From: Thermoplasmata archaeon
Lineage (GTDB): Archaea; Thermoplasmatota; Thermoplasmata; Lutacidiplasmatales; UBA184
DNA: 64,000 nt
NCBI GenBank assembly: GCA_035501555.1
Contig: DATJWA010000027.1
Coordinates: 256,156-320,155 of the forward strand
Direction: 5' to 3'
Shown here: positions 1 to 64,000 of the stretch, in pieces
Layout of the letters: each line of letters begins with the position of its first letter
How positions within the stretch are numbered: the stretch's first letter is position 1
The notes under the pieces: generated by a model
Told to the model about the DNA's origin: nothing
Seen by the model: the letters and a program-made list of their open reading frames with translations, nothing else
Database searches by the model: none
Made by a program: the position numbers and the translations under genes

Positions 1-1254
1 GACCGCCCCGTCTGCGTCGACGACCGTGAGGGAAAGGGGAGCGAATCCGCTCGCGTTGGGGGCGACGGGAAGTGTCAGCAGCCCGTCCTCGGTCAGGACC
101 TCCTGACCCGACTCGGCGCCGGCCTCGAACGACCAGGCCAGGGTGAACGGCGGCACTCCTCCGGCGATGCGAAGGTCGAAGAGGGCCGGGGCGCCGACCT
201 CCGCCTCGCCGGTGGGCGCGCTCACCTGGACCGATAGCGCCGCGGCCACCGGCTCCTCGAGCGTCTGCGTCAGAACGGGCGCCTCGCTCCCCGCGAGAGC
301 GAGGAGCGAGATCGGGAGGGGTCCGGCGGTTGTCGGGCGACAGGCGAGCTGGGGTTCCCCGCCCGAGTCGTTGGTGGAGGTCTCGCCGCAGCCGGTAAGG
401 CGCGAGTAGGCGTCGGGGGGCAGCCCGAAGAACGCTCCCGTGAACTGCACCGGCCGACCGACCTCCGCGGTCGTCGCCGAGCCGGTCACCGCGGCGGCGG
501 CCGCAGAGCTCACCTGGAGCGGCTGAGAGGTGGACGACGACGCTGCGTTTCCCAGCGAATCGACGACCGCCAGCTCGGGAGTGTACGTCCCCGTCGCAAA
601 GGTATGGGGCCAGCGGAACGGACCGGCCGCCACTCCGCGGTAGATCCCCTGGCTCCCGTCCCCCCATCGGACCGTGACGTCGTAGGGCGGGAGTCCCCCT
701 TCGATGCGACCGCTCAGGTTGGCCTGTCCTCCGTCGAGGAGGGGAGCAGGGGCCGCGGTCAGGCCGTCGACCGCGAGCGCTGCGACCTCGACCACCGAGC
801 CGAAGGCGGTCAGCAAGAGCCCGTCGGTCTGGTTGCCGCACCGGAGCACCGCCGCCGAACGAACCCCGACCGAGGCGCTCCCGGTTCGCGCGCTGGAACC
901 GGTGAAATTGACGGTCGAGACGTTCTGCCCGCTGAGCAGGCCGCCGACGGACCCCACCCCGACGAACCAGTGGAACCAGACCGGGGTGACCTCGCAGGCG
1001 GGGCTCCCGGAATTCCAGAGCGCCTGGAACGTCGTAGCGTTCCCCGCGTCGGCCCACGTCGAGTTCGGGGAAACCGTCAGGTTCGGCGCGGCCGGGAGGG
1101 GAGCTCCCGTCGAGCCCTCCACCGCGAGGGTCGGCGGCGGTGGGAGGGAGGTGGCCCCGAGGCCCGTGGGTCCGCTCAGGAGAACGAGGACGGGCACCAG
1201 GATGCCGAGGGGCGCGGCTCCGGCGCCCGTCGCTCCCCATCCGGACCCCGCCAC
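1..1254 (-). CDS. PKD-domain repeat surface/secreted protein. The N-terminal part is in the window; the gene runs off the left edge.
   Basis: Own translation of the minus strand. N-terminus has a hydrophobic signal/TM stretch (PLGILVPVLVLLSGP) then PPPP. Repeated PKD-like units follow (GGLPPYDVTVRWGDGS...HTFATGTYTPELAVVDSLGN). No in-frame stop to position 1. Putative GTG start ~1254. The gene is absent from the ORF track because it has no stop in the window. Confidence 0.55.
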   Translation of the reverse strand, partial: MAGSGWGATGAGAAPLGILVPVLVLLSGPTGLGATSLPPPPTLAVEGSTGAPLPAAPNLTVSPNSTWADAGNATTFQALWNSGSPACEVTPVWFHWFVGVGSVGGLLSGQNVSTVNFTGSSARTGSASVGVRSAAVLRCGNQTDGLLLTAFGSVVEVAALAVDGLTAAPAPLLDGGQANLSGRIEGGLPPYDVTVRWGDGSQGIYRGVAAGPFRWPHTFATGTYTPELAVVDSLGNAASSSTSQPLQVSSAAAAAVTGSATTAEVGRPVQFTGAFFGLPPDAYSRLTGCGETSTNDSGGEPQLACRPTTAGPLPISLLALAGSEAPVLTQTLEEPVAAALSVQVSAPTGEAEVGAPALFDLRIAGGVPPFTLAWSFEAGAESGQEVLTEDGLLTLPVAPNASGFAPLSLTVVDADGAV

Positions 1255-1336
1255 GAGACCACCGGCTCCTCCGAGCGGCCCCGGGTATTTCGGGCCGCAT
1301 CGCCCCGCGGAGGATGGAAGCTGGGGCGGCCGCCCT

Positions 1337-1999
1337 TCACGGCGCGAAGGTGACGAGGGCCACGTGATCGCGGGCGAACGGCGCGAGCCCGACCTCCTGA
1401 ACGGTCTGGACGCCCGCGCGCGCCAGCTCGGCCCGGGTCTCCCGGACGACCGAGGTCGCGGGGCGTCGTTGCGTGACCGATCGGACCTTCAACATCAGGA
1501 TCCCTCGGCCGCCAGCGGCGAGCGTCGCCCGGGCGTTCTCGACGAAGATCGCGGCCTGGTTTCGCTGGGCAACGTCCTGGTAGAGGAAGTCGACCTCGCC
1601 GACGTCCGCGCGATACCGCTCGGGGAGCTGGGCGTCGGCGAGGATCGGCAGAAGGTTGCGGCGCCGGCGGGCGAGCGCCAGCAGGGGAGCGAACGAGGTC
1701 GGGCTCTTCTCGACCACGAAGATCGGGGCCGGGTCCAGTACGTCCGATAGGTGGCTCGCGGTCGTCCCGTGGGCGCCTCCGAGGTAGAGGGACTTACGCG
1801 CGCCCCGCCAGAGGTCGGCCGGCGCGCCCTTCACGAGCAGCGCCGCGAGCTTGGAGCGAAACGGGTCCCAGTGGCGGTACTCCACCCCCTCGACCGTGCG
1901 GATCGTCTCGCCGTAGACCCGCTCCCCGGGGGGTCCCCGGTTCGGGGTGTAGAGGTCGCGGCCCTCGCGCAGGACCCCGGGCCAGGCGGTCGCCTCCAC
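1337..1999 (-). CDS. flpA: Fibrillarin (rRNA/tRNA 2'-O-methyltransferase).
   Basis: C-terminal 220 aa of ORF 1337..3379 match fibrillarin (VYGE..EYRHWDPFRSKLAA..LYLGGAHGTTASHLSDV..DVAQRNQAAI..FARDHVALV). Likely GTG start at 1999. The upstream remainder of the ORF is Arg-rich junk. Confidence 0.85.
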   Translation of the reverse strand: MEATAWPGVLREGRDLYTPNRGPPGERVYGETIRTVEGVEYRHWDPFRSKLAALLVKGAPADLWRGARKSLYLGGAHGTTASHLSDVLDPAPIFVVEKSPTSFAPLLALARRRRNLLPILADAQLPERYRADVGEVDFLYQDVAQRNQAAIFVENARATLAAGGRGILMLKVRSVTQRRPATSVVRETRAELARAGVQTVQEVGLAPFARDHVALVTFAP

Positions 2000-2007
2000 G
2001 GAAGCCC

Positions 2008-2472: not shown

Positions 2473-2555
2473 GGGCGCCTTCAACCCGCGGGACGGAAAA
2501 CGGGTGCGCCTGTGGGTCGGCAGGGCTAAGAACGGGCCTCGGGTGCCACCGGGCG

Positions 2556-2996
2556 ATGTCCTTCTTCCGCCGGCTTCGCCGGGACAAGGAGGAGCCCTCG
2601 GACGAGCCCGCGCCCAAGGCTCCCTCCGAAAAGCCGGCGCCCGCGCCCTCTGAAGCCCCGGCTCCGGCTCCGACCGCTCCCGACGAGAAGGCGGCGAGCC
2701 CGGCTCCAGTCCCTGCACCTGAGGCGGAAGCGGCCCCCGCGCCGGCCTCCCCGCCCGCTGGGCCGGCCGCCCCGGAACCCGTCGTGCCGAGCGGTGAGCC
2801 CGCCACCCCACCACCGGGTCCGGCGCCTTCCCCCGGGCCGCCGGTCTCGGCGGCCCCACCGCCCCTTCCCAGCCCCGGCCCTGTCTCCCCGGTCGCCCCG
2901 GCGGCGCGGATGACCCCCCTGTCGCTCTGCTTCGTCTGCGGGACTCCGCTCGAAGCCAAGTACTGCCCGACCTGCAAGATCGCCTGGGTCGAGTGA
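2556..2996 (+). CDS. Pro/Ala-rich low-complexity protein with C-terminal CxxC…CxxC zinc ribbon.
   Basis: ORF MSFFRRL… ending CFVCGTPLEAKYCPTCKIAWVE. Divergent from ridA. Low complexity, so only modest support. Confidence 0.4.
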   Translation: MSFFRRLRRDKEEPSDEPAPKAPSEKPAPAPSEAPAPAPTAPDEKAASPAPVPAPEAEAAPAPASPPAGPAAPEPVVPSGEPATPPPGPAPSPGPPVSAAPPPLPSPGPVSPVAPAARMTPLSLCFVCGTPLEAKYCPTCKIAWVE

Positions 2997-3059
2997 GACC
3001 CACGCGTCTCATCGGGCGCGTACTGTTTTGACCTCACTCCGCTGAGGACGCATCGTACC

Positions 3060-4691
3060 ATGGGCACCTCCTCGAGCGTTGCGGAGCTCGCCGTCCTCGA
3101 ACGAGCCGTCGTCGACCACGTGTTCGCCCTCCAGCCGGGGTACGCGGTCGGCCTCGGGTTGCACGAGTACGACGGGCGGGTACCGGACCTCTCCCCGGAG
3201 GGGACGGACCGGTGGGCCCGGGGGGCCGACCAGCTGCTGAGCCGGCTCGCGGCCCTGGACGAGGGCGGGTTGCCCGATGGACAGCGCGTGGACCGGTTCC
3301 TCCTCCGCCTGCTCCTCGAGAGTCCCCTCTTCGACCTCCGGGAGTCGTTCCAGCTCGACCGGAACCCGATGTCGTACATGGGCGGGGTGGCGTTGACGCC
3401 CTACCTCGTCCGAGACTACTCCCCCGTGCCCGACCGGGTCCGATCGATCGTCCAGATCCTCGAGCAGATCCCCCACATCCTCGACGTCGGCCGTCGCCGG
3501 CTCGTCGGGCCGATGCCGAAGCCATACGTCGAGCTCGCGATCTCGATGGGGTCCGGACTGCCCGGCCACCTGGACGAGGTGGAAGCGTTTGCGGCCCGGG
3601 CCGGCCTCGAGACGACGGTGCGCACTGCCCGGATCCCGGCCCAGGCAGCGATCGATGGCTTCCGGAACTGGCTGAAGGAGGACGTGCTCCCCCGGTCGGT
3701 CCCCGATTTCGCGCTCGGCGCGGCCCGCTACCAGCGGCTCCTCTTCGTCCGCGAAGGGCTCGAGACGCCGACCGCCGCCCTCCAGAAGGCGGGTGCGGCG
3801 GACCTGGCCCGCAACCAGGCGCGGCTCGCGGAGATCGCCAAAGAGGAGAAGCTCTCCGTCGACGCGCTGCTCGCGCGCCTCGGGGCGGACCATCCGAACG
3901 CCTCCGAGGTGGTCGCCACCGCCTCCCGGTTCGTGACGGAGACTCGGGAGTTCGTCCGGTCGAAGGGCCTCGTCTCGATCCCCGAGTCGGTGATGGTCCG
4001 GGTCGAGGAGACCCCGTTGTGGGGTCGAGCCCTCTCGACGGCGAGCATGGACTCCCCGGGTCCGTTCGACCCGACCCCCGAGGGGGTCTACTACGTGACC
4101 CCCGTCGACGCCGCGTGGAGCCCGACCCAGCAGGAGGAGTGGCTCCGTTCGTTCAACCGGACCCTTCTGCGGAACATCACGGTCCACGAGGTCTTCCCCG
4201 GCCACTACCTCCAGTTCCTCCACCTTCGTGCGGCCGAGGCGAGCCTCACGCGTCGCGTGTTCCGCTCCTCGTCGTTCATCGAAGGGTGGGCGCACTACAC
4301 CGAGCAGCTCGCGATCGAGGCCGGCCTCGGGGCTCCCCGGCACGACGCCGAGGTCGGGGAAATCCACGACGCCCTCCTGCGGGACTGCCGGCTCCTCTCG
4401 TCCATCGGGCTCCACACCGAAGGCTGGTCGGTCGAGCGGTCGACCCAGCTGTTCATGCACGAGGCCCACTTCGACCGCCTGCCGGCCGAGCGCGAGGCGA
4501 TGCGCGGGACGTTCGACCCGGAGTACTTCTGCTACACGCTCGGGAAGCTCGCGATCCTGAGCGCGCGCTCGAAGCTGCTCGCCTCCCACTTCGGGGGGAG
4601 CTTGCTGCGGTTCCACGATACCCTCCTCGCGCTCGGATGCCCGCCCGTGGGTCTCCTCGAAGGCCTGCTCGAAGGCGCGAAGGCCGGCTGA
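3060..4691 (+). CDS. DUF885 family putative metallopeptidase.
   Basis: 543-aa ORF with HEVFPGHYLQ (HExxPGH) and the overall DUF885 pattern. The overlapping minus ORF 3009..5192 is Arg-rich junk. Confidence 0.8.
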   Translation: MGTSSSVAELAVLERAVVDHVFALQPGYAVGLGLHEYDGRVPDLSPEGTDRWARGADQLLSRLAALDEGGLPDGQRVDRFLLRLLLESPLFDLRESFQLDRNPMSYMGGVALTPYLVRDYSPVPDRVRSIVQILEQIPHILDVGRRRLVGPMPKPYVELAISMGSGLPGHLDEVEAFAARAGLETTVRTARIPAQAAIDGFRNWLKEDVLPRSVPDFALGAARYQRLLFVREGLETPTAALQKAGAADLARNQARLAEIAKEEKLSVDALLARLGADHPNASEVVATASRFVTETREFVRSKGLVSIPESVMVRVEETPLWGRALSTASMDSPGPFDPTPEGVYYVTPVDAAWSPTQQEEWLRSFNRTLLRNITVHEVFPGHYLQFLHLRAAEASLTRRVFRSSSFIEGWAHYTEQLAIEAGLGAPRHDAEVGEIHDALLRDCRLLSSIGLHTEGWSVERSTQLFMHEAHFDRLPAEREAMRGTFDPEYFCYTLGKLAILSARSKLLASHFGGSLLRFHDTLLALGCPPVGLLEGLLEGAKAG

Positions 4692-5894: not shown

Positions 5895-6437
5895 CTAACG
5901 CCGAGCCATCCAGCCCTGGTGTTCGAGCTCGCGGAGGATGTGCTCGGCCGACTCGGCCGGGCGGAGGAGCACCGTGTCGACGATGATGTCGGGGTGGTCC
6001 GGGGCCTCGTACGGGTCGTCGACCCCGGTGAACGCCGTGATCTCGCCGGCTCGCGCCCGGCGGTACAGCCCCTTCACGTCGCGCTCCTCGCAGACGCCGA
6101 CCGGGGTGGAGACGTACACCTCGACAAACCGGCCGATCTCGGCGCGCGCCGCGGCGCGGGAGGTGCGGTACGGGGAGATGAGCGCGACGATGGGGATCGC
6201 CCCGTTCCGGGCGAGGAGCTTGGCGCAGAAGGCGACGCGCCCCGCGTGCGTCTCCCGCGACTTACGGTCGAAGCCGAGGTCGGCGCTGAGGCCCCGTCGG
6301 ACCTCGTCCCCGTCCAGGAGCTCGGCATACCAGCCCCGGTCTACGAGCCGCGGCAGCAGCTCGCGGGCGATCGTCGTCTTTCCGGCGGAGGGAAGCCCGG
6401 TCAGCCAGATGCAGAATCCTGGTGGTCCTCGTGCCAT
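5895..6437 (-). CDS. cysC: Adenylylsulfate kinase (APS kinase).
   Basis: IWLTGLPSAGKTT P-loop, LDGDEVRRGL..DLGFDR..R.ENIRR, ISPY motif. 180 aa. Confidence 0.9.
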   Translation of the reverse strand: MARGPPGFCIWLTGLPSAGKTTIARELLPRLVDRGWYAELLDGDEVRRGLSADLGFDRKSRETHAGRVAFCAKLLARNGAIPIVALISPYRTSRAAARAEIGRFVEVYVSTPVGVCEERDVKGLYRRARAGEITAFTGVDDPYEAPDHPDIIVDTVLLRPAESAEHILRELEHQGWMARR

Positions 6438-6452
6438 CGATGTTCTCCTTCC

Positions 6453-7607
6453 TCAGACGATCGTCACGTTCGGCCGCCGCAGGATCTCCGCGACCTCGGG
6501 TCGGAGGATCTCGGGCGGAAGGGGAGCGCCGGAGGCGAGCGCCTGGCGGATGCGGCTCTGGCTCGTCTCCGCGCGCTCGGAGACCGGATGGGCGCACGTC
6601 TTGCCGCTCGCCATCCAGCCGCACCTCCGACAGAAGAACGACTCGTCGTACCGCGCCGGCACGACGCCGACGTCGAACGCGTCGAAGATCCGGTGGCAGG
6701 CGTACGGCTCGTAGTACTTTCCGACCCCGGCCTGGTCCCGACCCACGATGTAGACCCCACAGCCGTAGTTCCGGCGGACGATCGCGAGGAAGAGCGCCGC
6801 CTTGGGGCCGCCGTAGCGCATCGTGATCGTCAGCGGGGCCATCATCACTCGATTCGCCGGATAGTAGTGGCGGACGAGCGCGTCGTAGGCCTCGAGGATC
6901 ACCTCCGGGCGGTAGTCCCCCTTCTTGAGGCGCCCGACGACCGGGTGGATCAAGAGGCCGTCCACATCCTCCCGCTCGAGCGTCAGGCGCTGGATGTACT
7001 CGTGGGCGGTGTGCGGGGGGTTCCGGCACTGGTAGGCGGCGACGCGCGACCACCCCCGGCGGGAGAACTCTTCCCGCGTCTCGGCCGGGGTCGGCTCGGC
7101 GCGCTCCCAAGGAGGGAGCAGCCGGTGCACGAGGTCGACCCGCCCGGCCCACGCCGTCTCGCCGCCGGCCAGAAGGTCCGCGACGTTGGGATGGGCCGGG
7201 TCCTCGGTGCCGTAGGTGGCCTGAGCGATCGCCCGTCGGTCGAGCGGGAAGACCTCGTCGACGTGGAGGACGGCGATCAACCGGTCTTGGGCGTCGAGCA
7301 GGCCGACCTCGTCGCCGGCCCGCACGGACGCGGCTGCGGGCGAGTCCGAAGGAACCGGGAAGTGGATCGGGATCGACCACGGGAGGCCGTTCGGCAGCCG
7401 TCCGGTGGTCGTCACGGACCGGACGGTCTCCGAGTCCATGAACCCCTCGAGCGGGCTGTAGGCGCCAATCCCGATCTTCTCCGCGTCGTACAGCTGGTCG
7501 ATCGCCGGGTGGACCGTGACGAGCTGGGCGCGCTCGCCGTCCCGACGGTCTCGCGCGGGCTCGGTCAGCTCCCGCTGGACGAGGCGCCCGCCGTACGGGT
7601 CGATCAT
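6453..7607 (-). CDS. sat: Sulfate adenylyltransferase (ATP sulfurylase).
   Basis: Internal start MIDPYGGRLV at 7607. QCRNPPHTAHE (QTRNxxHRAH-type motif) and GRDQAGVG motif. The upstream part of ORF 6453..8336 is junk. Confidence 0.9.
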   Translation of the reverse strand: MIDPYGGRLVQRELTEPARDRRDGERAQLVTVHPAIDQLYDAEKIGIGAYSPLEGFMDSETVRSVTTTGRLPNGLPWSIPIHFPVPSDSPAAASVRAGDEVGLLDAQDRLIAVLHVDEVFPLDRRAIAQATYGTEDPAHPNVADLLAGGETAWAGRVDLVHRLLPPWERAEPTPAETREEFSRRGWSRVAAYQCRNPPHTAHEYIQRLTLEREDVDGLLIHPVVGRLKKGDYRPEVILEAYDALVRHYYPANRVMMAPLTITMRYGGPKAALFLAIVRRNYGCGVYIVGRDQAGVGKYYEPYACHRIFDAFDVGVVPARYDESFFCRRCGWMASGKTCAHPVSERAETSQSRIRQALASGAPLPPEILRPEVAEILRRPNVTIV

Positions 7608-7651
7608 CGAGCTCCCTCTCCCAGAAAGGCGGGCCACTGAGACCTGGGCGC

Positions 7652-8416
7652 TTAAGAGCCCTCGGGAGCGGAGGGCGGCGGCCAGGTCGAGCTGGGCGGG
7701 TGGCCGGCCGTGAGCGAGTGGATCCCGCACTCGAGTTTCCCACGTCCGCGCCAACGCCCCGCGCGTTCCCCTTCGCCGGGGGCGACGGGCGACGTGCAGG
7801 GGGCGCACCCGACGCTCGAGTACCCCCGGGCCCACAGCGGGTGGCGGGGGAGGTCGTGGGCGTCCAGGTACCCCTCGACCTGCTCGAGCGACCAGGCGAC
7901 CAGGGGATTGACCTTGAAGAGACCGACCCCCGCTTCCAGCTCCTGCCACTCGACCACCGGAGTCCCTTGGCGTCCGGCGTGCTGGCTGCGGCGCAGTCCG
8001 GTCATCCACGCCGTGCGACCGTTCAGCGCCCGGTGGAGGGGTTCGACCTTCCGGATCGCGCAGCAGCGGTCGGGGTCGCGGGCGTACAGGTCGGTTCCGT
8101 ACCGAGCCTCCAGTTCGTCGGCAGAGAGGGCCGGCCGCACGTCCACGAGGTTGAGGTCCCACTCGCAGCGCAGCCGGTCCCGGAACGCGAGCGTTTCGGG
8201 GAAGTGGCAGCCGGTCTCGAGGAATAGGACCGGGATGTCGGGTCGGACCCTCCGGGCGATGTCGAGGACCACGAGACCGTCCTTGCCGAACCCCGAGGCG
8301 ATCACGAGCCCGCGGCCGAACTGCCCGCTCGCCCACCGGATGACCTCGTCCGGCCCGCTCCCCTCGAGCCCGCGCGACCAGTTCGCGGCCTCCTCGACGC
8401 GTCCGAGCGATGCCAT
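7652..8416 (-). CDS. cysH: APS/PAPS reductase (thioredoxin-dependent, Fe-S type).
   Basis: Internal start MASLGRVEE at 8416. PAPS_reduct fold, CC…CAPC cysteine pairs, C-terminal KLECGIH. Confidence 0.85.
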   Translation of the reverse strand: MASLGRVEEAANWSRGLEGSGPDEVIRWASGQFGRGLVIASGFGKDGLVVLDIARRVRPDIPVLFLETGCHFPETLAFRDRLRCEWDLNLVDVRPALSADELEARYGTDLYARDPDRCCAIRKVEPLHRALNGRTAWMTGLRRSQHAGRQGTPVVEWQELEAGVGLFKVNPLVAWSLEQVEGYLDAHDLPRHPLWARGYSSVGCAPCTSPVAPGEGERAGRWRGRGKLECGIHSLTAGHPPSSTWPPPSAPEGS

Positions 8417-49364: not shown

Positions 49365-49403
49365 CACGACCCGATTGTGCCCCCGTTCGGCAAGCGACCC
49401 TTT

Positions 49404-50814: not shown

Positions 50815-50925
50815 CGCCCACCGGCCGGAATCGAACGCGAACGGGGTATATCGACTGTCCGGGGGGCCGATGCGAAGAGACCTTTGGCCCCCGTGCGAAG
50901 ACGACCCCTCGGAAATCTCAAAAGA

Positions 50926-50964
50926 GGTCGGAGGGGGGAACTCCCAGTTTGTTCAAGTCCCCCA
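50926..50964 (+). repeat. tRNA-3'-end-like hairpin repeat.
   Basis: ggtcggaggggggaactcccagtttgttcaagtcccccac. Confidence 0.55.
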
Positions 50965-50975
50965 CCGAAGTACGG

Positions 50976-54660: not shown

Positions 54661-54745
54661 CAATCCGTTGATTTCGACCTCCCGTCGACGGTGAACCCCC
54701 CCTTTCGGAGAGGAGACCGGGATTGCGAAGGGCGTTGCACGATGA

Positions 54746-54786
54746 ATGTCGGAGGGGGACATTACTGAATTGTTCATATCCCCGAC
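54746..54786 (+). repeat. tRNA-3'-end-like hairpin repeat.
   Basis: atgtcggagggggacattactgaattgttcatatccccgac. Confidence 0.65.
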
Positions 54787-54927
54787 TTGGGGGTCAGCGA
54801 GAAAGCACGATTGCGAGACCACCGGTAGTCGGGTTATCGCGGTTACCGGACTACCCGGAGCGGCTGGGCTCCCGACACGCCAGATGCCCACAGTCGACCA
54901 GGTAAATCGCGGGCTTTTCCGCGAACC

Positions 54928-54963
54928 GGGGCTTAATCTAACGAATACCGTTTCCGGGCCATG
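54928..54963 (+). promoter_or_regulatory. Conserved paralog promoter block GGGGCTTAATCTAAC upstream of cyclase F.
   Basis: Same motif and spacing. This gene uses an ATG start. Confidence 0.6.
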
Positions 54964-56892: not shown

Positions 56893-56929
56893 GATCTCGT
56901 TCGGTGGTTCGGCGCCCTGGCTTGGAAGG

Positions 56930-56970
56930 GTGTCGGAGGGGGACACTACTGAATTCTTCATATCCCCGAC
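56930..56970 (+). repeat. tRNA-3'-end-like hairpin repeat.
   Basis: gtgtcggagggggacactactgaattcttcatatccccgac. Confidence 0.65.
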
Positions 56971-57114
56971 AACCCCCGTTTCTCGATGAAAGCCCGATTA
57001 CGCAACTACCTGTAGTCGGGAAAGTGCGATTGTGAGACTACACGAAGCGCTCGGCCTTCTAGGGGTTTGGATACATCAAATCAACTGGGCGGAACAAGAC
57101 CTCCGCGTTGAGCC

Positions 57115-57150
57115 GGGGCTTAATCTAACAAGTGCCGTTCCCGGGGAGTG
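57115..57150 (+). promoter_or_regulatory. Conserved paralog promoter block GGGGCTTAATCTAAC upstream of cyclase G.
   Basis: Same motif and spacing. Confidence 0.6.
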
Positions 57151-59073
57151 GCCGCGACCCGCCGCCTTGCCGCCATCATGTTCACCGACACAGTCGGCTA
57201 CACCGCCTCCGCGCAGGCGGACGAGGGCCGAACGCTCGACCTGCTCCGACAGCAGGCGGAGCTGGTTCGTCCGCTCCTGGTGGTCCACCAGGGCCGAGAG
57301 ATCAAGACAACCGGGGACGGTTTCCTGGTCGAGTTCGACAGCGCACTCAAGGCTACCCAGTGTGCGGTGAGCATTCAGCGACGAATCTACGAGCGAAACT
57401 CCGAAGGCGGCCTCGCCCCGATCCAGATCCGGATCGGCATCCACTTGGGAGATGTCGTGCAGAGTGGCGCGGACATCCTCGGAGACGCGGTGAACATCGC
57501 GGCTCGGATCGAACCGATTGCCGAGCCCGGGGGCATCTGCCTGTCGGGCGCCGTTTACGAGCAAGTCCGGAACAAGGTACTCGAGAAGTTCGAGAAGCTC
57601 CCACCTGCCGCGCTCAAGGGGGTGGAGGCGCAGATCGACCTTTACCGAGTGGCGCTGCCGTGGAACGCTCTTCCGTCCTCAGCACACGACCTGGTTCCCG
57701 CGGGGATTGCCGTCCTCCCATTCTCCAACATCAGTCCGGATCCGAACGACGCCTACTTCGCAGACGGGCTGACCGAGGAATTAATCTCCGTGCTCTCTCA
57801 GTTTCGAGAGCTTCGGGTGATTGCGCGGACCTCGGTGACGCCCTACAAATCCACCTCAAAGGGGGTCAGTCAAATCGGGGCTGAGCTGGGCGTTTCCTCG
57901 ATCCTGGAAGGGAGTGTGCGAAAGGCGGGGAATCAGCTTCGGATTACTGCACAGCTGATCGATGTGCCTTCCCAGGGACACGTCTGGGCCAACTCCTACA
58001 ACCGAGAGCTCGATGATGTTTTCGTGGTCCAAGCCGAGCTCGCGAAGCAAGTCGCGGAGGCGCTGAAGATCGAACTCCAAGCCACCGAGAGGGCGAAACT
58101 CGAAGCGCGGCCGGCGGTGAGGCAGGACTCGTATCTCGCCTATCTGAAAGGACGCACGCTCCTGCACCGGTGGTCGCCGGAGACACTCAAGGCGGCGAAA
58201 GAGCAGTTCGAGCTTGCGATATCTCTGGATGGCCGAAATGCGTCGGCTTATTCAGGACTATCCGAGGTAATTCTACTGGACGGACTTTGGTTTTCTAGCA
58301 GTCCCCGAGTGGAGTGGAACGACTCAAGCCGGAAACTCGCCACTCGGGCGTTAGAAATCGACCCGAATCTCGCGGAAGCCCACTGCTCGCTCACCTTGGT
58401 TTTGTGGGACGAGTACCAATATGTGGAGTCCGAAACAGAGTTCAATCGAGCAACAGCTCTCAACCCCAGCCTCGCCGTAGCACACCGACACTACGGCCTC
58501 TTCCTGGCGGAGGAAGCTCGACCCGACGAGGCCCTACGCGAATTCGAGCTGGCCGAGGCCTTGGACCCGCTGTCAATAATCGTCCTCGCCAATCATGGCA
58601 TGTTGCTCATTCGTCTCCGGCAGCTGGACAAAGCGAGAGTCGCGATTGAGAAGCTGGGCCGGTTGGACGAATCCACCAGAGCATACCACGCCCTCCTGGG
58701 TGACTACTTCTGGGCGAAGGGCGATCACGCAGCGCAAATCGAACAACTTGACCTTACAATCAGAAGTTCGCCACAAGACCCACTGAATCCGATGTTTCGC
58801 GCGGCGGTCTATGCCTCGGCGGGCCGAGCGGACCAAGCACGGGAGTTGCTTCCCTTAGTAGAAGCGATGCCAGAAACCGCTCTCAAGTTCGCTACTCTTA
58901 TGGAAATCCACGCGGACCTGAACGACCTAGATGAATGCTTTAGGGTCATCGAGAAGGCAGTCGACGCTCACAAGTTCGGTGCGATCATATTGTTCCGGCT
59001 GGACCCCAGCTACGAGCAGGTGCGTCAGGACCCAAGGTTCAAGAGGATTCTTCAGAGGATGCACCTCGCCTGA
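57148..59073 (+). CDS. Class III cyclase (CHD) – TolB-N-like – TPR protein (paralog G, subtype 2).
   Basis: GTG start. Cyclase motifs. IAVLPFSNISPDPNDAYFADGLTEE segment. TPR repeats. Confidence 0.9.
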   Translation: MAATRRLAAIMFTDTVGYTASAQADEGRTLDLLRQQAELVRPLLVVHQGREIKTTGDGFLVEFDSALKATQCAVSIQRRIYERNSEGGLAPIQIRIGIHLGDVVQSGADILGDAVNIAARIEPIAEPGGICLSGAVYEQVRNKVLEKFEKLPPAALKGVEAQIDLYRVALPWNALPSSAHDLVPAGIAVLPFSNISPDPNDAYFADGLTEELISVLSQFRELRVIARTSVTPYKSTSKGVSQIGAELGVSSILEGSVRKAGNQLRITAQLIDVPSQGHVWANSYNRELDDVFVVQAELAKQVAEALKIELQATERAKLEARPAVRQDSYLAYLKGRTLLHRWSPETLKAAKEQFELAISLDGRNASAYSGLSEVILLDGLWFSSSPRVEWNDSSRKLATRALEIDPNLAEAHCSLTLVLWDEYQYVESETEFNRATALNPSLAVAHRHYGLFLAEEARPDEALREFELAEALDPLSIIVLANHGMLLIRLRQLDKARVAIEKLGRLDESTRAYHALLGDYFWAKGDHAAQIEQLDLTIRSSPQDPLNPMFRAAVYASAGRADQARELLPLVEAMPETALKFATLMEIHADLNDLDECFRVIEKAVDAHKFGAIILFRLDPSYEQVRQDPRFKRILQRMHLA

Positions 59074-59202
59074 CCCGCCACACTCCGCGCCTTGCCACCA
59101 GTACACAACCCACCCGTTTCCGGAGGGGCAGATGGCGGGTTCAAATCCCTTACACCCGTAGGGTCAAGTGTTGGCGTTTCTCGGCGAGAAATTGCCAAAG
59201 GA

Positions 59203-59304
59203 TGTCGGAGGGGGGATTTGAACCCCCGACCCCAGGATCTCTCCCGGGACGCCCGCGGCGGCCCGCTATGAGTCCCGTGCTCTACCAGGCTGAGCCACTC
59301 CGAC
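59203..59304 (-). tRNA. tRNA with CAU anticodon (elongator Met or Ile2). It contains a ~16-nt intron in the anticodon loop and an unusually long region before the T-arm, possibly a second intron.
   Basis: Minus-strand read: GTCGGAG-TG-GCTCAGCCTGGTAGAGC-A-CGGGA-CTCATA[GCGGGCCGCCGCGGGC]G-TCCCG-…-GGGGGTTCAAATCCCCC-CTCCGAC-A. Canonical acceptor, D-arm and T-arm are present. No CCA is encoded. Confidence 0.6.
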
Positions 59305-59330
59305 AGGGATCGGAGGCACCACGGCCGCAC

Positions 59331-60059
59331 CTACGCGCCCGCGTCCTCGTCGCCGCCCGCGGTCGCCGCGACCGGAGGCGGGCCCGACGGACCTTCCGGG
59401 GCCGGGCTCTCGGTCGGGGGCGGGCTGGTGGGGATTTCCTCCGCGATCGCCCCGAGGACCTCGGAGCGGCGGATCTCGATCTTCTTCAGCGGGTACAGGG
59501 TGCGGACCCCGTGAGCCAGGATCTTCGACAGTTCCCCCTGGATCATCTCGCGGACGAACTCGGGGGCGGTCCGCTGGGCCGCCTCCTCCCGGAGGATGTC
59601 GACCATCTTGTGCCGCAGTTCCGCGCGCAGCCGCGTCTGGAGGCGTTGCTCGCCGACCGCGACCGGCTTGAGCACGATCTCGATCCCGTCCTTCGTCGTC
59701 ACGTGGAGCGAGGTGTCGATCTTGGAGCGCTTGCGACGGGCGAGGCGTCGGACGTAATCGGAGGTAAGGTCGTGGCCGATGAACCGGGTCTCGGCGACCC
59801 CGTCCCCGCCCACGCGCTCCACGCGGAACCGCATCTTGATGTGGGCCTTGCCGGCGTCTTGGCCCCCCGAGAGCTCGGGGACCGTCATCTCGAGCGTCCG
59901 GCCGATCAACTGCTCGGGTTCGGTCGCCACGGTCTCCCCGAGGTCGGCGTGCTGGAAGAGGCCCGGCGCACGGACCTTGTAAAAGTGCTTGGCCCTCCAC
60001 TTGTCCTTGACGGTCCGGGCGACCGTGGTCTTCTTCCCGGACGTCTCCTTCTCGGCCAT
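59331..60059 (-). CDS. rps3ae: 30S ribosomal protein S3Ae (S1e family).
   Basis: Internal ATG (MAEKETSGKKTTVARTVKDKWRAKHFYKVRAP…). The upstream TTG-initiated part of the ORF is spurious. Confidence 0.85.
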   Translation of the reverse strand: MAEKETSGKKTTVARTVKDKWRAKHFYKVRAPGLFQHADLGETVATEPEQLIGRTLEMTVPELSGGQDAGKAHIKMRFRVERVGGDGVAETRFIGHDLTSDYVRRLARRKRSKIDTSLHVTTKDGIEIVLKPVAVGEQRLQTRLRAELRHKMVDILREEAAQRTAPEFVREMIQGELSKILAHGVRTLYPLKKIEIRRSEVLGAIAEEIPTSPPPTESPAPEGPSGPPPVAATAGGDEDAGA

Positions 60060-60190
60060 GGGTCGCGGGGCCGCCGAGCGGGGTACCCTACTTAACCGTG
60101 TCGAGGCGGCGGAGGTCGATTCCCTGACGGAGGCTCCCGCGGAGCGCTCCCGTTGGCAAAGTACATAACCCGAGCCCAACTCCGCGCGCC

Positions 60191-61720
60191 GTGGCGGCGG
60201 CCAAGGAACCGGCGAAGGGTGCGCGGTCGACCGCGGCCGAGCTCCGCACCCTCCATCCGGCGGCCGAGTCCCCCGGGGAGCGCTTCCGGGGCGAGGTCCT
60301 CCGCCGGCTCGACGCGGCCCGAACCCGAGGTCTTTCCCGGGACGAGGCGATCCGGTCCCTCTTCCCGCACACGGTCCTCCCGTCCCAGACCTACGAGGAC
60401 GTGGTCGCGGCGGTCGTCTCGGGCGCGCACGTCCTCTTCTTCGGCCCGTCCGGCGCGGGCAAGACGAGCCTCGCCAAGGACCTCTGGGGCCTCTTCCCGA
60501 AGGGAGCCTGGGTGGTCGACGGCTGCCCGGTCCTGGACGACCCTCTCTCGATCATCGACCCGGCATCGGCCGACCGGTTCCCCCCGTGCCCGATCTGCAC
60601 CCGTCGCTTCGCTCCGGGCGGGGACCCGGTCCGCTTCGAACCCGCGGCCGTGGACGGCACCAAGGTCCCGGCCCAGTACGTGCACCTGCACGAAGGGTTC
60701 GGGTTCGCCCGGCTCCAGGGGAGCTCGGAGGTCTTTCCCGACCATCTGACCGGCAACATCAACCTCCGAAAGCTCGAGGAGGTCGGGGACCCGATGAGCC
60801 CCCTGGTCCTCGAACCGGGCAAGCTCCTCCAGGCGAACCGGGGGTTCCTCCTCGTCGATGAGATTGGGAAGCTGCCGCTCGGCACCCAGAACGTGCTCCT
60901 CCAGGCCCTCCAGGAGGGGGTGGTCACCCCCTCGAAGTCCCGGGAGAGCTTCCCCGGCTCGTTCGTCGCGGTCGGGACCTCGAACCTCTCCGACCTCGAC
61001 AACATCAACGACCCGCTCTCCGACCGCCTCACCAGCCTGTACGTCGGGTACAACGAACGGCACGCCGACAACCGACGGATCGTCGCGCTGGCGCGGGTGG
61101 AGGAAGGGGGCGGGTGGGTCCCCGAGATCCTCACGGACGCCGGCGTGCGGGTCATCGAGGCGTGGCGGCTGAGGACGAGCGACGACAACCCGGACATCGG
61201 GGAGGTCGGCTCGAACCGCACCCTGCTCGACGTCGCCAGCCGGACCCACGCGATCGCCACGCTCGCCGAGCGGACGATCCCCGTCTCGGCCGACCTCAAG
61301 GCGGGCCTGTTGCATGCGATGCGGGGCCGACTGCGCGCCCGCAGCGGAGAGTCGTTCCGCCAGAACGAGAAGCGGGTCGGCGAGTTCATCGAGCAGTACC
61401 TGGGCCCCTCGCTGAAGCGGAGTGCGGGCGTCTACTGGTGCCGCTACTACCGGGACTCACTGAAGGAGAGCGCCACCGAGGCCGAGGCGCTGGTCGGGGA
61501 GGGTCGTCGCCTGAAGGACGACGCGGCCCTGCTCACGCAGTCGGCGGGCGACCCCACCCTCTTCCCCCGCTTCCGCTCCTTCGCCCGATTCGTGGGCGAG
61601 CGCGAGCACCCCGGGGACGGGGTCGCCCCGTTCGACGCGGCGCTGGGCGTCTTCCGCCTCCTGGAGGAGCACTCCCTCTTCTCGTGCCGCGACGAGGACG
61701 ACGACGACGCCCCCGTCTAG
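60191..61720 (+). CDS. MoxR/ChlI-like AAA+ ATPase.
   Basis: Walker A FFGPSGAGKTSL, Walker B GFLLVDEIGKLP, sensor region QNVLLQALQEGVVT. Confidence 0.8.
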   Translation: MAAAKEPAKGARSTAAELRTLHPAAESPGERFRGEVLRRLDAARTRGLSRDEAIRSLFPHTVLPSQTYEDVVAAVVSGAHVLFFGPSGAGKTSLAKDLWGLFPKGAWVVDGCPVLDDPLSIIDPASADRFPPCPICTRRFAPGGDPVRFEPAAVDGTKVPAQYVHLHEGFGFARLQGSSEVFPDHLTGNINLRKLEEVGDPMSPLVLEPGKLLQANRGFLLVDEIGKLPLGTQNVLLQALQEGVVTPSKSRESFPGSFVAVGTSNLSDLDNINDPLSDRLTSLYVGYNERHADNRRIVALARVEEGGGWVPEILTDAGVRVIEAWRLRTSDDNPDIGEVGSNRTLLDVASRTHAIATLAERTIPVSADLKAGLLHAMRGRLRARSGESFRQNEKRVGEFIEQYLGPSLKRSAGVYWCRYYRDSLKESATEAEALVGEGRRLKDDAALLTQSAGDPTLFPRFRSFARFVGEREHPGDGVAPFDAALGVFRLLEEHSLFSCRDEDDDDAPV

Positions 61721-61727
61721 CGACGCC

Positions 61728-63521
61728 GTGCGCCTTCCGGATTGCTCGACGTACGACGACGACGTCGGCTCGGACGACCTGGTGGACGCCCTCGACGCGG
61801 GCGCGCTCGTCCGGGCGCTCGCTGAGGAAGGGGTCGACGGGGCCCGGCGCCTCCTCCAGTCGAAGGCCGCGGAGGATGCCGAGCTGCGGGCCCGCCTGGA
61901 CCGGCTCCGTGCCCAGCTGCGCCGGCAGGACCAGCGCCGGGTGGGCCGGGTCAGGGCCGAGTACGACCGGCAGGTCGAGGCGCTCGACGAGGTCCGAATG
62001 CGGTCCGACGTGGAGGTGCAGCAGCGTCTCGCCGCGCTCGAAGCCCGACTCGCGGCCGCGCGCCAGGTCGACTGGTCCCGGTTGCCACCCTCCGACCTCC
62101 TGAGCGACGTTTCCGCGGCGCTCCTACTTCCGGACGCCTCGTGGAACCAGCCCCCGCCGCGGCCGGGGCTCGGGGCGCGCATCCGTGCGTTCTTTGCACG
62201 GATCGCGGCCTGGTTCCGCTCCCTCTTCTCCCGGAAGCGCGGCTCCGGAAAGGCCGCCCCTCCCGAGGGACGAACGGTCGCATTCGCCTACGCGAGCCCC
62301 GACGGTCGGGGCCTCGGGGCCTCGGAGCTCGGGGAGGCGCTCGCCCGGCTGTCGCCCGCCCAGCAGCAGGAGCTCTCAGGCAGCGTCGCGAACTCTCTCA
62401 AGGCCAAGGAGCGGGCCCTCGAGCGGGAGGCCGAGGAGAAGCGGAAGGCGGTCGAGGCCCAGCGGCGACGGCTCGAGGAGGAACGGGCCGAGGCGGCCCG
62501 CCGGGCCGCGGCCGAGACCGAGAACCGGGTGAAGGAGGGGGAGGCGCGCCGCCTCGAGCGGGAGCTCAAGGAGCGCGGGTTCGTGGCGGAGCGGGGCGAG
62601 AGCCTGGTCGTGACGTTCGGCCTCGTCCAGCGGTTCGCCCGCCTCCTGCTCGAGGAGGAGACGAAGCGCCTGCCGACCGACGTGCGGCTCTCGCTCAAGG
62701 GCGAGGGAGCGACCGGGGTCTACGAGAAGGCCCGGCTGCGCCGGGCCGAGGAGATCGCACACCTCGACGTGCCCGGCTCGCTCCTGGCCGCGCGAATGGC
62801 CGGCCAGCGCCACATCGAGGAGTCCACCAGCTACGTCTACCGGGAGGTGACGAGCGAGCGCGTCCACGTGGTGCTCGCCTTCGACCGCTCGGGCAGCATG
62901 GCCGAGGCCGGCAAGCTCGACGCGGCGAAGAAGGCCCTCCTCGCGCTCTACGTGGCGATCCGGCGCCGGTACCCGGACGCCACGATCGACCTCCTCGCGT
63001 TCGACAACGAGGTCGAGGTGCTCGACCTGGTGACGCTCTGGGAGTGCCGGGCGGGGTCGTTCACGAACACCGCGGAGGCGCTCCGGGCGGCCCACCTGCT
63101 CCTCCAAACCTCCCGGGCGAACCGGCGCGAGCTCTACCTCATCACGGATGGGTTGCCGGAGGCGTACACGGGGGAGGACGGACGGGTCCATTCTGGCCAA
63201 CTGGACCGGGCGATGGAGCAGGCGCTCGTCCGGGCGACCGAGGTCGCGACCGTGCGGCCCCTGCGCAGCACGATGATCCTCCTCAAGTCCCCGAACCCCG
63301 AGTACGAGCCGGCGGCCCGCCTCATCGCACGGACGATGGGCGGCGAGCTCGTCGTGACCGACCCGGGCCGCCTCGGGGTCGAGCTGCTGGTCCGGTGGGC
63401 CCACGGGGTCGAGACCGAACGGCGCCTGATGCCTCCGGCCCCGGCGGTCGTCGCGACCCCCCCGGGCTCCCCGGGAGGGCGGGGCCGCCGGCGGCGGGCC
63501 GACCGTCGGATGGGCGGCTGA
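61728..63521 (+). CDS. von Willebrand factor A (VWA) domain protein with N-terminal coiled-coil, partner of the MoxR ATPase.
   Basis: MIDAS motif VLAFDRSGSM. Long Glu/Arg/Ala coiled-coil. GTG start 7 nt after the ATPase stop. Confidence 0.75.
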   Translation: MRLPDCSTYDDDVGSDDLVDALDAGALVRALAEEGVDGARRLLQSKAAEDAELRARLDRLRAQLRRQDQRRVGRVRAEYDRQVEALDEVRMRSDVEVQQRLAALEARLAAARQVDWSRLPPSDLLSDVSAALLLPDASWNQPPPRPGLGARIRAFFARIAAWFRSLFSRKRGSGKAAPPEGRTVAFAYASPDGRGLGASELGEALARLSPAQQQELSGSVANSLKAKERALEREAEEKRKAVEAQRRRLEEERAEAARRAAAETENRVKEGEARRLERELKERGFVAERGESLVVTFGLVQRFARLLLEEETKRLPTDVRLSLKGEGATGVYEKARLRRAEEIAHLDVPGSLLAARMAGQRHIEESTSYVYREVTSERVHVVLAFDRSGSMAEAGKLDAAKKALLALYVAIRRRYPDATIDLLAFDNEVEVLDLVTLWECRAGSFTNTAEALRAAHLLLQTSRANRRELYLITDGLPEAYTGEDGRVHSGQLDRAMEQALVRATEVATVRPLRSTMILLKSPNPEYEPAARLIARTMGGELVVTDPGRLGVELLVRWAHGVETERRLMPPAPAVVATPPGSPGGRGRRRRADRRMGG

Positions 63522-63586
63522 CCCCCGTTGCCGCTGGCGCCGAAGGTTTATCTTGCGAACCCGCGGTCGTTCGCCCGGTGGACACC

Positions 63587-63994
63587 ATGAGCGACGGTTC
63601 AGACCAGGCCCGGTTCCGCGAACACCTGGCCCAGATGCGCCAGGCGGCCCGCGGTCTCGGCGGGGATTTCGTTTCGGAGTTCAGCGACCTCGACACGAAG
63701 ATCGAGCGGTTCGGCCACGCGACGGCCCGGGACGCGCGGGAGCTCGGCTCGGAGATCGAGGACGGGATCTCCCACCTCGGTAAGCAGATCGACGACCAGA
63801 TGCGGCGCCTTCCCGGACGGATCGCCGACGGGGCCTCCCGCGCGGGCGGGGCGACCCGGGACGCCTTCGTCGCGGTCGGTCACAAGACGAAGGAAGGAAC
63901 GAAGAACGCGCTCGCCTCGGCCGCGGGGGTCAACCGCAAGCCGATCAAGACCTGGAGCCCCCCCGAGGGGCCGGACGAGAACCGACCCTCGTAG
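63587..63994 (+). CDS. Small hypothetical protein (helical, DUF883/LEA-like composition).
   Basis: The last 135 aa of the long junk ORF 62141..63994 start at ATG 63587 (MSDGSDQARFREHLAQMRQAARGL…). TTTATCT ~34 nt upstream. Confidence 0.5.
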   Translation: MSDGSDQARFREHLAQMRQAARGLGGDFVSEFSDLDTKIERFGHATARDARELGSEIEDGISHLGKQIDDQMRRLPGRIADGASRAGGATRDAFVAVGHKTKEGTKNALASAAGVNRKPIKTWSPPEGPDENRPS

Positions 63995-64000
63995 GAGGGG

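Follow-up and report, generated by a model that had tools for sequence, protein, structure and literature searches.

The DNA analysed here is a 64,000-nt window of contig DATJWA010000027.1 (positions 256,156 to 320,155; assembly GCA_035501555.1) from a Thermoplasmata archaeon. It contains a variable region that ends at an intron-bearing tRNA-Met gene and, next to that gene, an array of small gene cassettes separated by repeats that resemble the 3' end of the tRNA. Genes were called with a codon-usage (codon log-odds) model, and the 58 proteins of the window were scanned against Pfam and then against NCBIfam. The variable region is flanked by two conserved core blocks. The proximal block includes the gene of ribosomal protein S3Ae (rps3ae; 59331–60059, minus strand; PF01015, E = 1.6e-55; NF003142 exceeds its cut-off), which is the proximal anchor of the array, and a AAA+ (MoxR/Mg-chelatase-like) ATPase with a VWA partner (60191–63521, plus strand), which belong to the core of the lineage and lie outside the island. 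The distal block includes fibrillarin (flpA; 1340–1999, minus strand; PF01269, E = 5.6e-56; NF003276 equivalog, 211 bits vs a cut-off of 113) and a DUF885 protein (3060–4691, plus strand; PF05960, E = 8.5e-76), with which conservation resumes beyond the variable region.

The gene order hyp138–VWA–AAA+–S3Ae–tRNA-Met is kept in almost every relative, and the genes past the tRNA vary by genome. In two related contigs, L012 (DATJNY01) and L034 (JBKQPJ01), the DUF885–YjgF–fibrillarin–hypothetical gene block lies only 4–5.5 kb from S3Ae–tRNA-Met; the same two blocks are 54.5 kb apart in the window (4.7–59.2 kb). Because of this synteny in the relatives, the archaeal core genes located at the ends of the window are the flanks of one variable region.

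The anchoring gene is a tRNA-Met(CAU) of 102 nt with an intron (59203–59304, minus strand; Rfam RF00005, 57 bits; aragorn -i). It was missed by the default ARAGORN run of the window and found in the intron mode. By manual reading, the intron appears to be 28 nt long and to occupy the canonical position 37/38. This reading is preferred because it results in a normal 74-nt tRNA; the fold drawn by ARAGORN, with a 16-nt intron and a long variable arm, was dropped. The sequences inserted at the intron position differ among the tRNA-Met genes of the relatives. The tRNA gene and the 25 nt downstream of it form the anchoring att site of the array (59179–59304, minus strand).

Copies of the tRNA end were sought as possible att sites, and a hidden Markov model (HMM) derived from 20 copies was then run with nhmmer. 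On the plus strand, the core of the repeat is TGTCGGAGGGGG(G)A..., the reverse complement of the last 13–14 nt of the tRNA. It continues into a conserved arm of about 27 nt, ACTACTGAATTSTTCAWATCCCCNAC, and in front of many repeats lie about 25 nt with homology to the downstream flank of the tRNA, TCTCGGCGAGAAATCGGYGAAA. With at most one mismatch, the 12-mer TGTCGGAGGGGG has 12 occurrences vs 1.28 expected, a number reached in none of 100 shuffled sequences. Besides the tRNA junction, eight significant repeats were found (E-values from 7e-7 to 1.5e-17), all of them on the plus strand and intergenic. They are located at 35669–35714 (E = 7e-7; the most distal significant copy), 39694–39757 (E = 1.8e-12), 43334–43379 (E = 3e-10), 43905–43950 (E = 7e-10), 47217–47284 (E = 2e-17; repeat family D13), 50914–50966 (E = 1.4e-7), 54726–54790 (E = 7e-17) and 56910–56972 (E = 1.5e-17). 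Weak traces of the repeat are present at 49404, 36985, 33205 and 30489. The repeat at 47217–47284 includes 28 nt homologous to the immediate downstream sequence of the tRNA. The same 40-mer as in the repeat at 56910–56972 occurs in L015, and near-identical copies of that repeat are found in L038 and L040.

A second form of the repeat, type B, retains the whole T-arm of the tRNA and is common in the relatives. In 38 relatives that contain the tRNA gene, the 216 kb of sequence 3' of the tRNA have 37 repeat elements, and the 310 kb on the opposite side are free of them. Twenty-nine of the 37 elements share the orientation of the tRNA, and most of the others are type-B matches on the other strand, which we suspect to reflect the partly palindromic sequence of type B. 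An independent exact-pattern scan of JGI metagenomes returned 26 contigs, half of them (13) with a full or partial tRNA-Met 3' end; eight of these 13 also carry rps3ae, and the remaining 13 contigs are short pieces that bear either homologous cassettes or bare elements. The repeat is conserved across species whose S3Ae proteins are only 70–75% identical.

Two observations on shorter tRNA-like sequences may be added. The short repeat family D17 has copies at 59093–59149, 54 nt downstream of the tRNA, and at 49378–49434, between genes g48 and g49; both contain the T-arm-like sequence GGGTTCAAATCCC on the strand opposite to the tRNA. Inverted T-arm pieces (type-B elements) are also located just downstream of the tRNA in several relatives.

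The repeats divide the 23.5 kb from 35.7 to 59.2 kb into approximately nine units of 0.5–4 kb, mostly with one to three called genes. Many of these genes encode proteins with a class III cyclase domain (CHD; PF00211). The cassette closest to the tRNA carries the CHD-TPR gene g54 (57148–59073, plus strand; PF00211, E = 5.3e-14). It is followed, in the direction away from the tRNA, by the CHD-TPR gene g53 (54961–56892, plus strand; PF00211; 71% identical to g37), the AAA_16-TPR gene g52, which has no CHD (52198–54660, plus strand; PF13191, E = 1.3e-21, and TPRs), the LipJ-like gene g49 for an alpha/beta-hydrolase fused to a CHD (49462–50814, minus strand; PF12146 at residues 59–256, PF00211 at residues 295–446), and the CHD-TPR gene g48 (47448–49364, plus strand; PF00211, E = 1.9e-16). 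Further out are two CHD-AAA_16-TPR genes, g47 (44060–47095, plus strand; PF00211 and PF13191) and g45 (39927–43217, plus strand; 1096 aa; PF00211, E = 3.4e-16; PF13191, E = 1.7e-23), and AhpC/TSA and DsbA-like thioredoxin-fold genes (35998–36938, plus strand; PF00578, PF13462/PF01323) that are also cassette cargo. The most distal clear cassette, the ninth unit of the window, consists of the CHD-TPR gene g37 (33300–35231, plus strand; PF00211, E = 2.7e-15, and TPRs) and a DUF1330 gene (35370–35651).

The same units occur in other surroundings in the relatives. The g37–DUF1330 unit adjoins the tRNA in L007 (89% and 88% identity), L074 and L076. An orthologue of g47 (87%) is flanked by att repeats in L059 and has other neighbours there, as does the unit of g44, an ArsR gene and an AHSA1 gene (93–95% identity) in L075. 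In L012, the g49 orthologue is 87% identical vs 57–77% for the flanking core proteins. The cargo of the relatives includes a recurrent zinc alcohol dehydrogenase (Zn-ADH), SDR, Acr3/SBF, PhaE/PhaC with an enoyl-CoA hydratase, a thiolase, an esterase, a beta-lactamase-family protein, a citrate transporter, MFS and GNAT proteins, HTH regulators and an IS630 transposase. In L035, from the metagenome-assembled genome (MAG) MFD09222.bin.1.10, a gene for a 427-aa tyrosine recombinase (PF00589) adjoins the 3' end of the same tRNA-Met gene, and the genes after it, over 8 kb or more, have a GC content at third codon positions (GC3) of 0.57–0.64 (L035:10923–20675). This stretch is probably an intact integrated element, whose far end lies beyond the analysed DNA. 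Given the integrase at tRNA-Met in L035, the end of this tRNA therefore serves as attB in the lineage.

The base composition changes along the window. GC content per 2-kb interval is 0.69–0.73 at 1–16 kb, about 0.68 at 16–26 kb, 0.60–0.65 at 28–60 kb and 0.72–0.73 at 60–64 kb (66.8% in the window as a whole), and the return to the last value is abrupt, directly past the tRNA. The two core flanks have mean GC3 values of 0.90 and 0.93, vs 0.756 at 35.7–59.1 kb (Mann-Whitney p = 6e-6), with means of 0.91, 0.85 and 0.83 at 4.7–17, 17–27 and 27–36 kb, respectively; over 47 genes, GC3 is correlated with position at Spearman rho = -0.84 (p = 1e-13). The block of lowest GC3 coincides with the location of the cyclase genes. 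The relatives' cassette genes show a similar offset (GC3 of about 0.70–0.86 vs 0.88–0.96 in their core flanks), hence low GC3 is a property of a shared cassette pool.

The content of the distal 31 kb of the variable region (4.7–35.7 kb) is different. It has no significant repeats, its GC3 is core-like at the far end, and it contains the housekeeping gene of type II (archaeal) GAPDH (21788–22873, minus strand; NF003251, 430 bits; TIGR01546, 384 bits; both exceed their cut-offs), whose homologues carry the name 'type II GAPDH [Thermoplasmata archaeon]'. The neighbourhood of this gene differs from genus to genus. The distal part may be old, eroded cargo.

Seven proteins of the window contain the CHD, with PF00211 scores of 43–61 bits vs a cut-off of 21.9. 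The AAA_16 domain was found, along with TPR matches, in g14, g45, g47 and g52 (78–96 bits vs a cut-off of 32.6). The four 640-aa CHD-TPR proteins (g37, g48, g53 and g54) had no match to AAA_16 and therefore do not count as STAND proteins. The six N-terminal CHDs share the invariant residues D14, K53, D57, D110, N117, R121 and K158 (g37 numbering). They represent the two metal-binding Asp, the ATP-specifying Lys/Asp pair, the transition-state Asn/Arg and the C-terminal Lys. Since the full catalytic set of adenylyl cyclases is retained, these six proteins most likely make cAMP, and the stimulus would be ligands or partners that act at the TPR/STAND part. The g49 protein has His for Asn (AVH(L/I) instead of AVN), the same as LipJ of Mycobacterium tuberculosis, whose CHD (1ybt) is its best PDB match (E = 3e-37). 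The best PDB match of g45 is 3mr7, a Ruegeria-type 'cyclase/hydrolase' CHD, and the next is M. avium Ma1120.

The sequence GGGCTTAATCTAAC is conserved 22–31 nt 5' of six CHD start codons, and a fuller motif, GGG(C/A)TTAATCTAAC, is found upstream of 33300, 39927, 44060, 47448, 54961 and 57148. The TATA-like box upstream of the cyclase genes is TTAATCTAA. Because the motif is located at TATA-box distance from the start codons, the cyclase genes are predicted to have archaeal-style leaderless expression. The motif position also suggests that g47 starts with GTG at 44060 and not with ATG at 44090. The CHD paralogues are mutually 38–71% identical; a recent tandem duplication was rejected on these values, and the paralogues would be old copies or separate captures.

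The closest named homologues of these proteins are archaeal. Of the best 120 homologues of g45, eight are named, and every one of these is from Thermoplasmata, down to 34–40% identity. The bacterial comparison of g45 and g49 was done by tblastn against a plasmid collection, a biased stand-in for genome-wide binning. In this collection, g45 had only 25–27% identity to its matches in Rhizobium, Sinorhizobium, Streptomyces and Embleya, and g49 had 45–47% full-length identity to proteins of Sinorhizobium, Microvirga, Bradyrhizobium and Paraburkholderia. A CHD-TPR gene also occurs in two loci of another genus (MFD09222-type; L056:1313–3262 and L057:1268–3262), where it lies 7 kb from the type II GAPDH gene and far from rps3ae, hence the cyclase family is not restricted to the tRNA-Met array.

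Bacterial class III cyclases with STAND/TPR modules include the rhizobial CHD-AAA-TPR proteins and the Rv0386-type cyclases. The window proteins have the same PF00211 domain with complete catalytic residues and the same succession of an N-terminal CHD, AAA_16 and TPR, and g49 shares with LipJ (Rv1900c, PDB 1ybt) both the order of hydrolase and CHD and the Asn-to-His substitution. In contrast to the bacterial cyclases, the window genes are encoded by an archaeon with TATA/leaderless promoters, and their products have no LuxR-type HTH output domain. The CHD-AAA_16-TPR proteins are 25–27% identical to plasmid-borne bacterial homologues vs 35–74% to other Thermoplasmata proteins. Judged by architecture, which is bacterial, 'soil-bacterial type' seems a fair description of the signalling genes. 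According to reviews, it is unknown which enzyme makes cAMP in archaeal models, and the protein annotated as a class IV 'cyclase' is a triphosphatase (PMC10249747, PMC8233210). Genomes of soil Nitrososphaeraceae have been noted to contain class III cyclases (PMC13577086); for Thermoplasmatota, our literature search turned up no description of such enzymes. As the archaeal source of cAMP is unsettled, class III adenylyl cyclases that appear active and have expanded across the lineage are a concrete biochemical target.

The host was placed by an S3Ae search of the GTDB species representatives, and its taxonomy rests on this one marker. All 41 loci found belong to MAGs named 'Thermoplasmata archaeon' or 'Thermoplasmatota archaeon', from projects on soil, peat and permafrost-type material. 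The highest identities are to JOPF143 (97%) and MFD00991.bin.2.14 (96%), a single-contig chromosome of 2.18 Mb; identity is 70–79% to AcS1-67, SubAcS10-22 and SubAcS15-31, and 75% to UBA184. The nearest relatives by S3Ae, GAPDH and g45 are all labelled Thermoplasmata, and the window contains the archaea-specific genes of fibrillarin and S3Ae (NCBIfam equivalogs over cut-off) and the intron-bearing tRNA (Rfam, aragorn -i). AcS1-67, SubAcS10-22 and SubAcS15-31 are among the MAGs that define Ca. Lutacidiplasmatales, formerly TMEG, an order whose MAGs have 65–71% GC and genome sizes near 2 Mb (Sheridan et al. 2022, PMC9287336). The host resembles this order in its high GC, in the S3Ae identity to these three MAGs, in the acid forest, grassland, marsh and peat soils from which related sequences come, and in genomes of about 2 Mb. 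In contrast to the defining MAGs, the nearest ones, JOPF143 and MFD00991, bear the label 'Thermoplasmata archaeon' only. From S3Ae identity and GC content, the host appears to be a member or close neighbour of Ca. Lutacidiplasmatales/TMEG. The word 'cyclase' is absent from the paper on this order (PMC9287336). A haloarchaeal origin of the high GC was considered and rejected: the proteome is not acidic (D+E 12.3%, K+R 11.6%) and all relatives are Thermoplasmata.

The window represents genuine chromosomal DNA of an uncultured soil/peat member of Thermoplasmata. The 118.5-kb contig k141_2478968 of the ENA assembly ERZ27256501 is 99.93–99.96% identical to every compared part of 22,456–62,651, the range from which sequence was compared; its coordinates imply coverage of the left end as well. 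Logan contigs of SRR8881005 are 100% identical to the window at 24,650–38,095, 39,947–48,325 and 59,277–60,970, and JGI contigs have 97–99.99% identity to it. The g45 protein is 100% identical to an NCBI protein labelled 'MAG TPA: Thermoplasmata archaeon' on a 426-kb contig, probably the window's own source. The order of AAA+/VWA, S3Ae, tRNA and CHD genes is seen again in related MAGs, including the 2.18-Mb single-contig chromosome.

In one assembly, ERZ27256612, the region is split into two contigs that overlap at 37,952–39,043. One of them, L053, has a strain-variant junction with the window inside the AHSA1 gene (37952–38425). All 49 mismatches between L053 and the window lie within 37,959–38,425 of this gene, where the L053 allele is about 10% diverged; from 38426 on, the two are 100% identical for 18.7 kb. 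Upstream of the junction, the sequences of L053 (L053:1–3862) and of the window are unrelated. An ars-type block of genes for a SCO4226-like protein, ArsR, a SAM-methyltransferase, a low-molecular-weight phosphatase (LMWPc) and an SBF/Acr3-type transporter, in this order, stands in L053 where the window has a segment with DsbA and methyltransferase genes. The difference is a co-existing strain allele joined by homologous recombination and not an assembly error of the window; the split of the ERZ27256612 contigs results from this allele.

The region from 4.7 to 59.2 kb has the features of a genomic island: an intact tRNA gene marks one boundary and direct repeats of the 3' part of this gene occur inside, the flanks are conserved around a content that is variable among relatives and strains, and the base composition is off that of the core. 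The unequal spacing of the two core blocks in the window and in the relatives (54.5 kb vs 4–5.5 kb) and the one-sided, tRNA-derived repeats are new and indicate serial site-specific capture. We consider it likely, with good confidence, that a tRNA-anchored array formed by such capture accounts for the mix of genes in the window. The mechanism would be repeated integration of the tyrosine-recombinase type into the 3' end of tRNA-Met. Recombination between the tRNA 3' end and a copy of it borne by the incoming element would restore the tRNA and displace a partial tRNA, and each new insertion would shift the older cassettes outward; later, strains would exchange segments by homologous recombination and the distal sites would decay. 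Both the recombinase mechanism and the direction of array growth are what we infer from the pattern of repeats. The units that have no integrase could be an array of decayed remnants, could be mobilized in trans as in integrons, or could be exchanged by homologous recombination that uses the repeats as portable homology.

'Gene capture' by archaeal integrated elements was reportedly discussed by She et al. in 2001. The tRNA-anchored tycheposon islands of Prochlorococcus, which grow by serial integration (Hackl et al., bioRxiv 10.1101/2020.12.28.424599), and the archaeal integrated elements that form arrays by re-using one att site (Krupovic et al. 2019, PMC6563490) are the systems most relevant here. 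In common with them, the window has an intact tRNA at one end and partial tRNA copies in direct orientation, niche-adaptive cargo, variable content between conserved flanks and a GC content under that of the core; newer insertions beside the tRNA, with older ones pushed out, would be a further common feature. In contrast to these islands, the units of the window are tiny (0.5–4 kb, one to three genes), all nine are without an integrase or replication module, and the repeat is conserved between species with S3Ae only 70–75% identical. Limited literature searches found no island of such kind described for soil Thermoplasmata.

Integrons, including archaeal ones (Ghaly et al. 2022, PMC9668308), also have mostly single-gene cassettes without an integrase, site-like repeats, and an array fixed at one site with cassettes shuffled among genomes. 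Unlike integrons, the array of the window is bounded by the tRNA, rps3ae and the AAA+/VWA genes, with no IntI or other integrase in the window; its cassette genes lie on both strands with their own promoters, and its repeats derive from the tRNA 3' end and not from attC. The GTTRRRY core is not apparent in the repeats by eye. Folding of the repeats, with z-scores of -0.2 to -1.7, lends no support to structured elements such as attC-like hairpins or a small RNA. Single-strand substrates of the attC kind are disfavoured because the repeats fold no better than shuffled sequence.

Several results weigh against serial capture. No match to PF00589 or another recombinase was found in the 58 window proteins, nor any integrase in 30 cassette proteins, 20 from relatives and 10 from the metagenome contigs, except that of L035, and tblastn with the L035 integrase gave no match in any of the 26 metagenome loci. 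Neither an excised circle nor an element with attP was detected, and two pattern scans of IMG/VR viral contigs were empty. The single-strand folds of the repeats, no more stable than those of shuffled sequences, belong here as well. The repeat HMMs were built from elements on the tRNA side; the 3'-side asymmetry is nevertheless no artefact of the models, because the first plain-pattern search covered both sides and both strands. The distal 31 kb shows only sub-significant traces of the repeat, at 30.5 and 33.2 kb, and may have come by ordinary rearrangement and not by att-mediated capture.

In a different history, local tandem duplication and homologous recombination would have built the array. 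The repeats would then not be recombinase sites; they would be portable homology or a conserved regulatory or terminator element that by coincidence resembles the tRNA end. In favour of this history, the array and its surroundings lack an integrase, the paralogous CHD genes of six cassettes share a promoter motif and 5' sequence (families D1 and D2), and the sole resolved strain difference is a homologous-recombination junction within a gene and not at a repeat. We regard this explanation as unlikely. The repeats flank unrelated cargo in the relatives (e.g. Zn-ADH, PHA synthase and the IS630 transposase). They share the terminal 13–14 nt of the tRNA and often about 25 nt beyond it, in tRNA orientation and on the 3' side only, an integrase-bearing element is located at the same tRNA in L035, and the paralogues, at 38–71% identity, are too diverged for recent tandem copies while the repeats stay conserved. 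A second alternative is close to the original prediction, which had described long-resident, actinobacterial-flavoured genes of uniform GC and codon style in an unusual high-GC archaeon. Here, old and fully ameliorated actinobacterial transfers would be scattered among the core genes of such a host. CHD-ATPase-TPR and LipJ-like architectures are indeed classic in mycobacteria, with M. tuberculosis LipJ as the best PDB match of g49; the genes at 4.7–17 kb have a core-like GC3 of about 0.91, and the identity of the CHD paralogues (38–71%) makes them old. The composition is not uniform, however, as the GC3 profile run along the contig shows a steep gradient falling from about 0.92 to 0.75 toward the tRNA. 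The signalling genes are not scattered; they cluster in a strain-variable array delimited by att repeats, and the top full-length bacterial matches in the plasmid collection are from Alphaproteobacteria and Burkholderiales rather than Actinobacteria. The 'actinobacterial' label does not suit g49, with its nearest plasmid matches in rhizobia and Burkholderiales, nor g45, whose eight named homologues are all from Thermoplasmata. The host, moreover, is in or beside a described soil order with 65–71% GC and is not unusual in this respect. Long residence itself stands in part: the bacterial-type genes are established in the lineage, with orthologues in other species and archaeal promoters, but they sit in a strain-variable cassette array anchored at tRNA-Met and are not simply resident. 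As a whole, the scattered-transfer explanation seems quite improbable to us.

A chimeric contig, with bacterial parts wrongly joined to archaeal ones, had been discounted from the outset, and the comparisons bear this out; we give it hardly any credence. GC does change abruptly at the tRNA (59.2 kb), with gentler shifts near 16 and 27 kb, one assembly breaks the region in two, and 12 of 38 related contigs stop within 2 kb of the tRNA (those ending at most 2 kb past it are L006, L008, L009, L014, L017, L026, L029, L032, L033, L039, L041 and L043). The break in ERZ27256612 is accounted for by the strain allele, with all its 49 mismatches in one gene. An independent assembly matches the compared parts of 22.5–62.7 kb at no less than 99.9%, two further samples have contigs that cross internal junctions, and the S3Ae–tRNA–CHD adjacency is found in many MAGs, including Mb-scale contigs of other projects. 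Independent assemblies thus cross the junctions, and synteny is kept in related MAGs. In addition, the CHD genes are under archaeal promoters, and the closest named homologues in the g45 search are all from Thermoplasmata. Short-read assemblies of this lineage break repeatedly at the tRNA-Met hotspot. This is a caution for binning and chimera filters, for which the drop of about 0.17 in GC3 at the tRNA would look like a mis-join; it is biology.

Under serial capture, which we prefer, soil Thermoplasmata take in and circulate bacterial-type accessory genes via one tRNA-Met hotspot between core blocks. A more ambitious version is possible but in our view rather doubtful: that the repeats are a cassette-exchange platform conserved across the soil Thermoplasmata order and served by a recombinase in trans, and that the cyclases are a bona fide archaeal cAMP-synthesising family. 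If true, this would be a tRNA-gene-based functional analogue of the integron, in which cassettes of one to three genes and no integrase are captured and reshuffled at the 3' end of tRNA-Met, with catalytically intact class III cyclases as the commonest cargo in the window.

The remaining genes of the variable region include the cysC–sat–cysH operon of sulfate assimilation (5895–8416, minus strand; PF01583, PF01747 with PF14306, PF01507), with a GC3 of about 0.9 and scores of NF002537 and NF003166 that exceed their cut-offs. They also include the AAA_16-TPR (STAND-like) gene g14, which has no CHD (12812–15184, plus strand; PF13191, E = 2.1e-21; a TPR_MalT match, E = 4.5e-9, is under the gathering cut-off), and a DHA2-like MFS gene (15605–17212, minus strand), whose best NCBIfam model is TIGR00711 (DHA2) with a score under the cut-off. 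Pfam further identified two ArsR-type regulators, at 28444 and at 38460 (minus strand), and HxlR at 31216 (minus strand). With these, the archaeal markers and the bacterial-type genes that had been listed from the letters were all recovered by Pfam, NCBIfam and Rfam. Two of the labels need narrowing. CHD-STAND-TPR applies to g45 and g47 and not to the four 640-aa CHD-TPR proteins, in which AAA_16 is missing. The MoxR/VWA pair is present, but its ATPase scores just under the cut-off for AAA_3 (MoxR; 26.6 bits vs 27), AAA_PrkA and Mg_chelatase match better, and on these scores it can be called only MoxR-like. Its VWA partner has 32.2 bits to VWA_2 vs a cut-off of 27, and for the pair every NCBIfam model stays under its cut-off. 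The proposed TATA-box leaderless promoters and Shine-Dalgarno (SD)-led genes are plausible: TTAAGT-like boxes lie about 26–38 nt 5' of rps3ae and other genes, and an SD-like motif precedes four of 11 genes with short gaps.

The divergent HxlR and glyoxalase-family genes are separated by a 71-nt spacer (31594–31664) with an AT-rich, palindrome-like sequence, GGATATCCTTTGGATATTATATACC. In this position, GGATATCCTTTGGATATTATATACC is probably an operator plus two TATA boxes. No confident gene was found in the 575 nt between the YjgF and DUF885 genes (2485–3059) or at 51837–52197, which is part of about 360–690 nt 5' of g52, depending on whether that gene starts at 52198 or 52531.

Beyond fibrillarin (L047:10746–18484; positions 1–1254 of the window), there is a run of proteins of 729, 137, 373, 259 and 115 aa without a Pfam match, followed by a DUF87/HerA-like ATPase and then by an N6/N4 DNA methylase. 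The first gene of the window is the start of the 729-aa protein. This run could be another mobile or defence module. To the right of the window (L001:1–6115), the VWA gene is followed by genes of two T2SSE-type ATPases, two T2SSF-type membrane proteins and an N6/N4 methylase; the T2SSE and T2SSF genes are predicted to form a type IV pilus or archaellum-like cluster.

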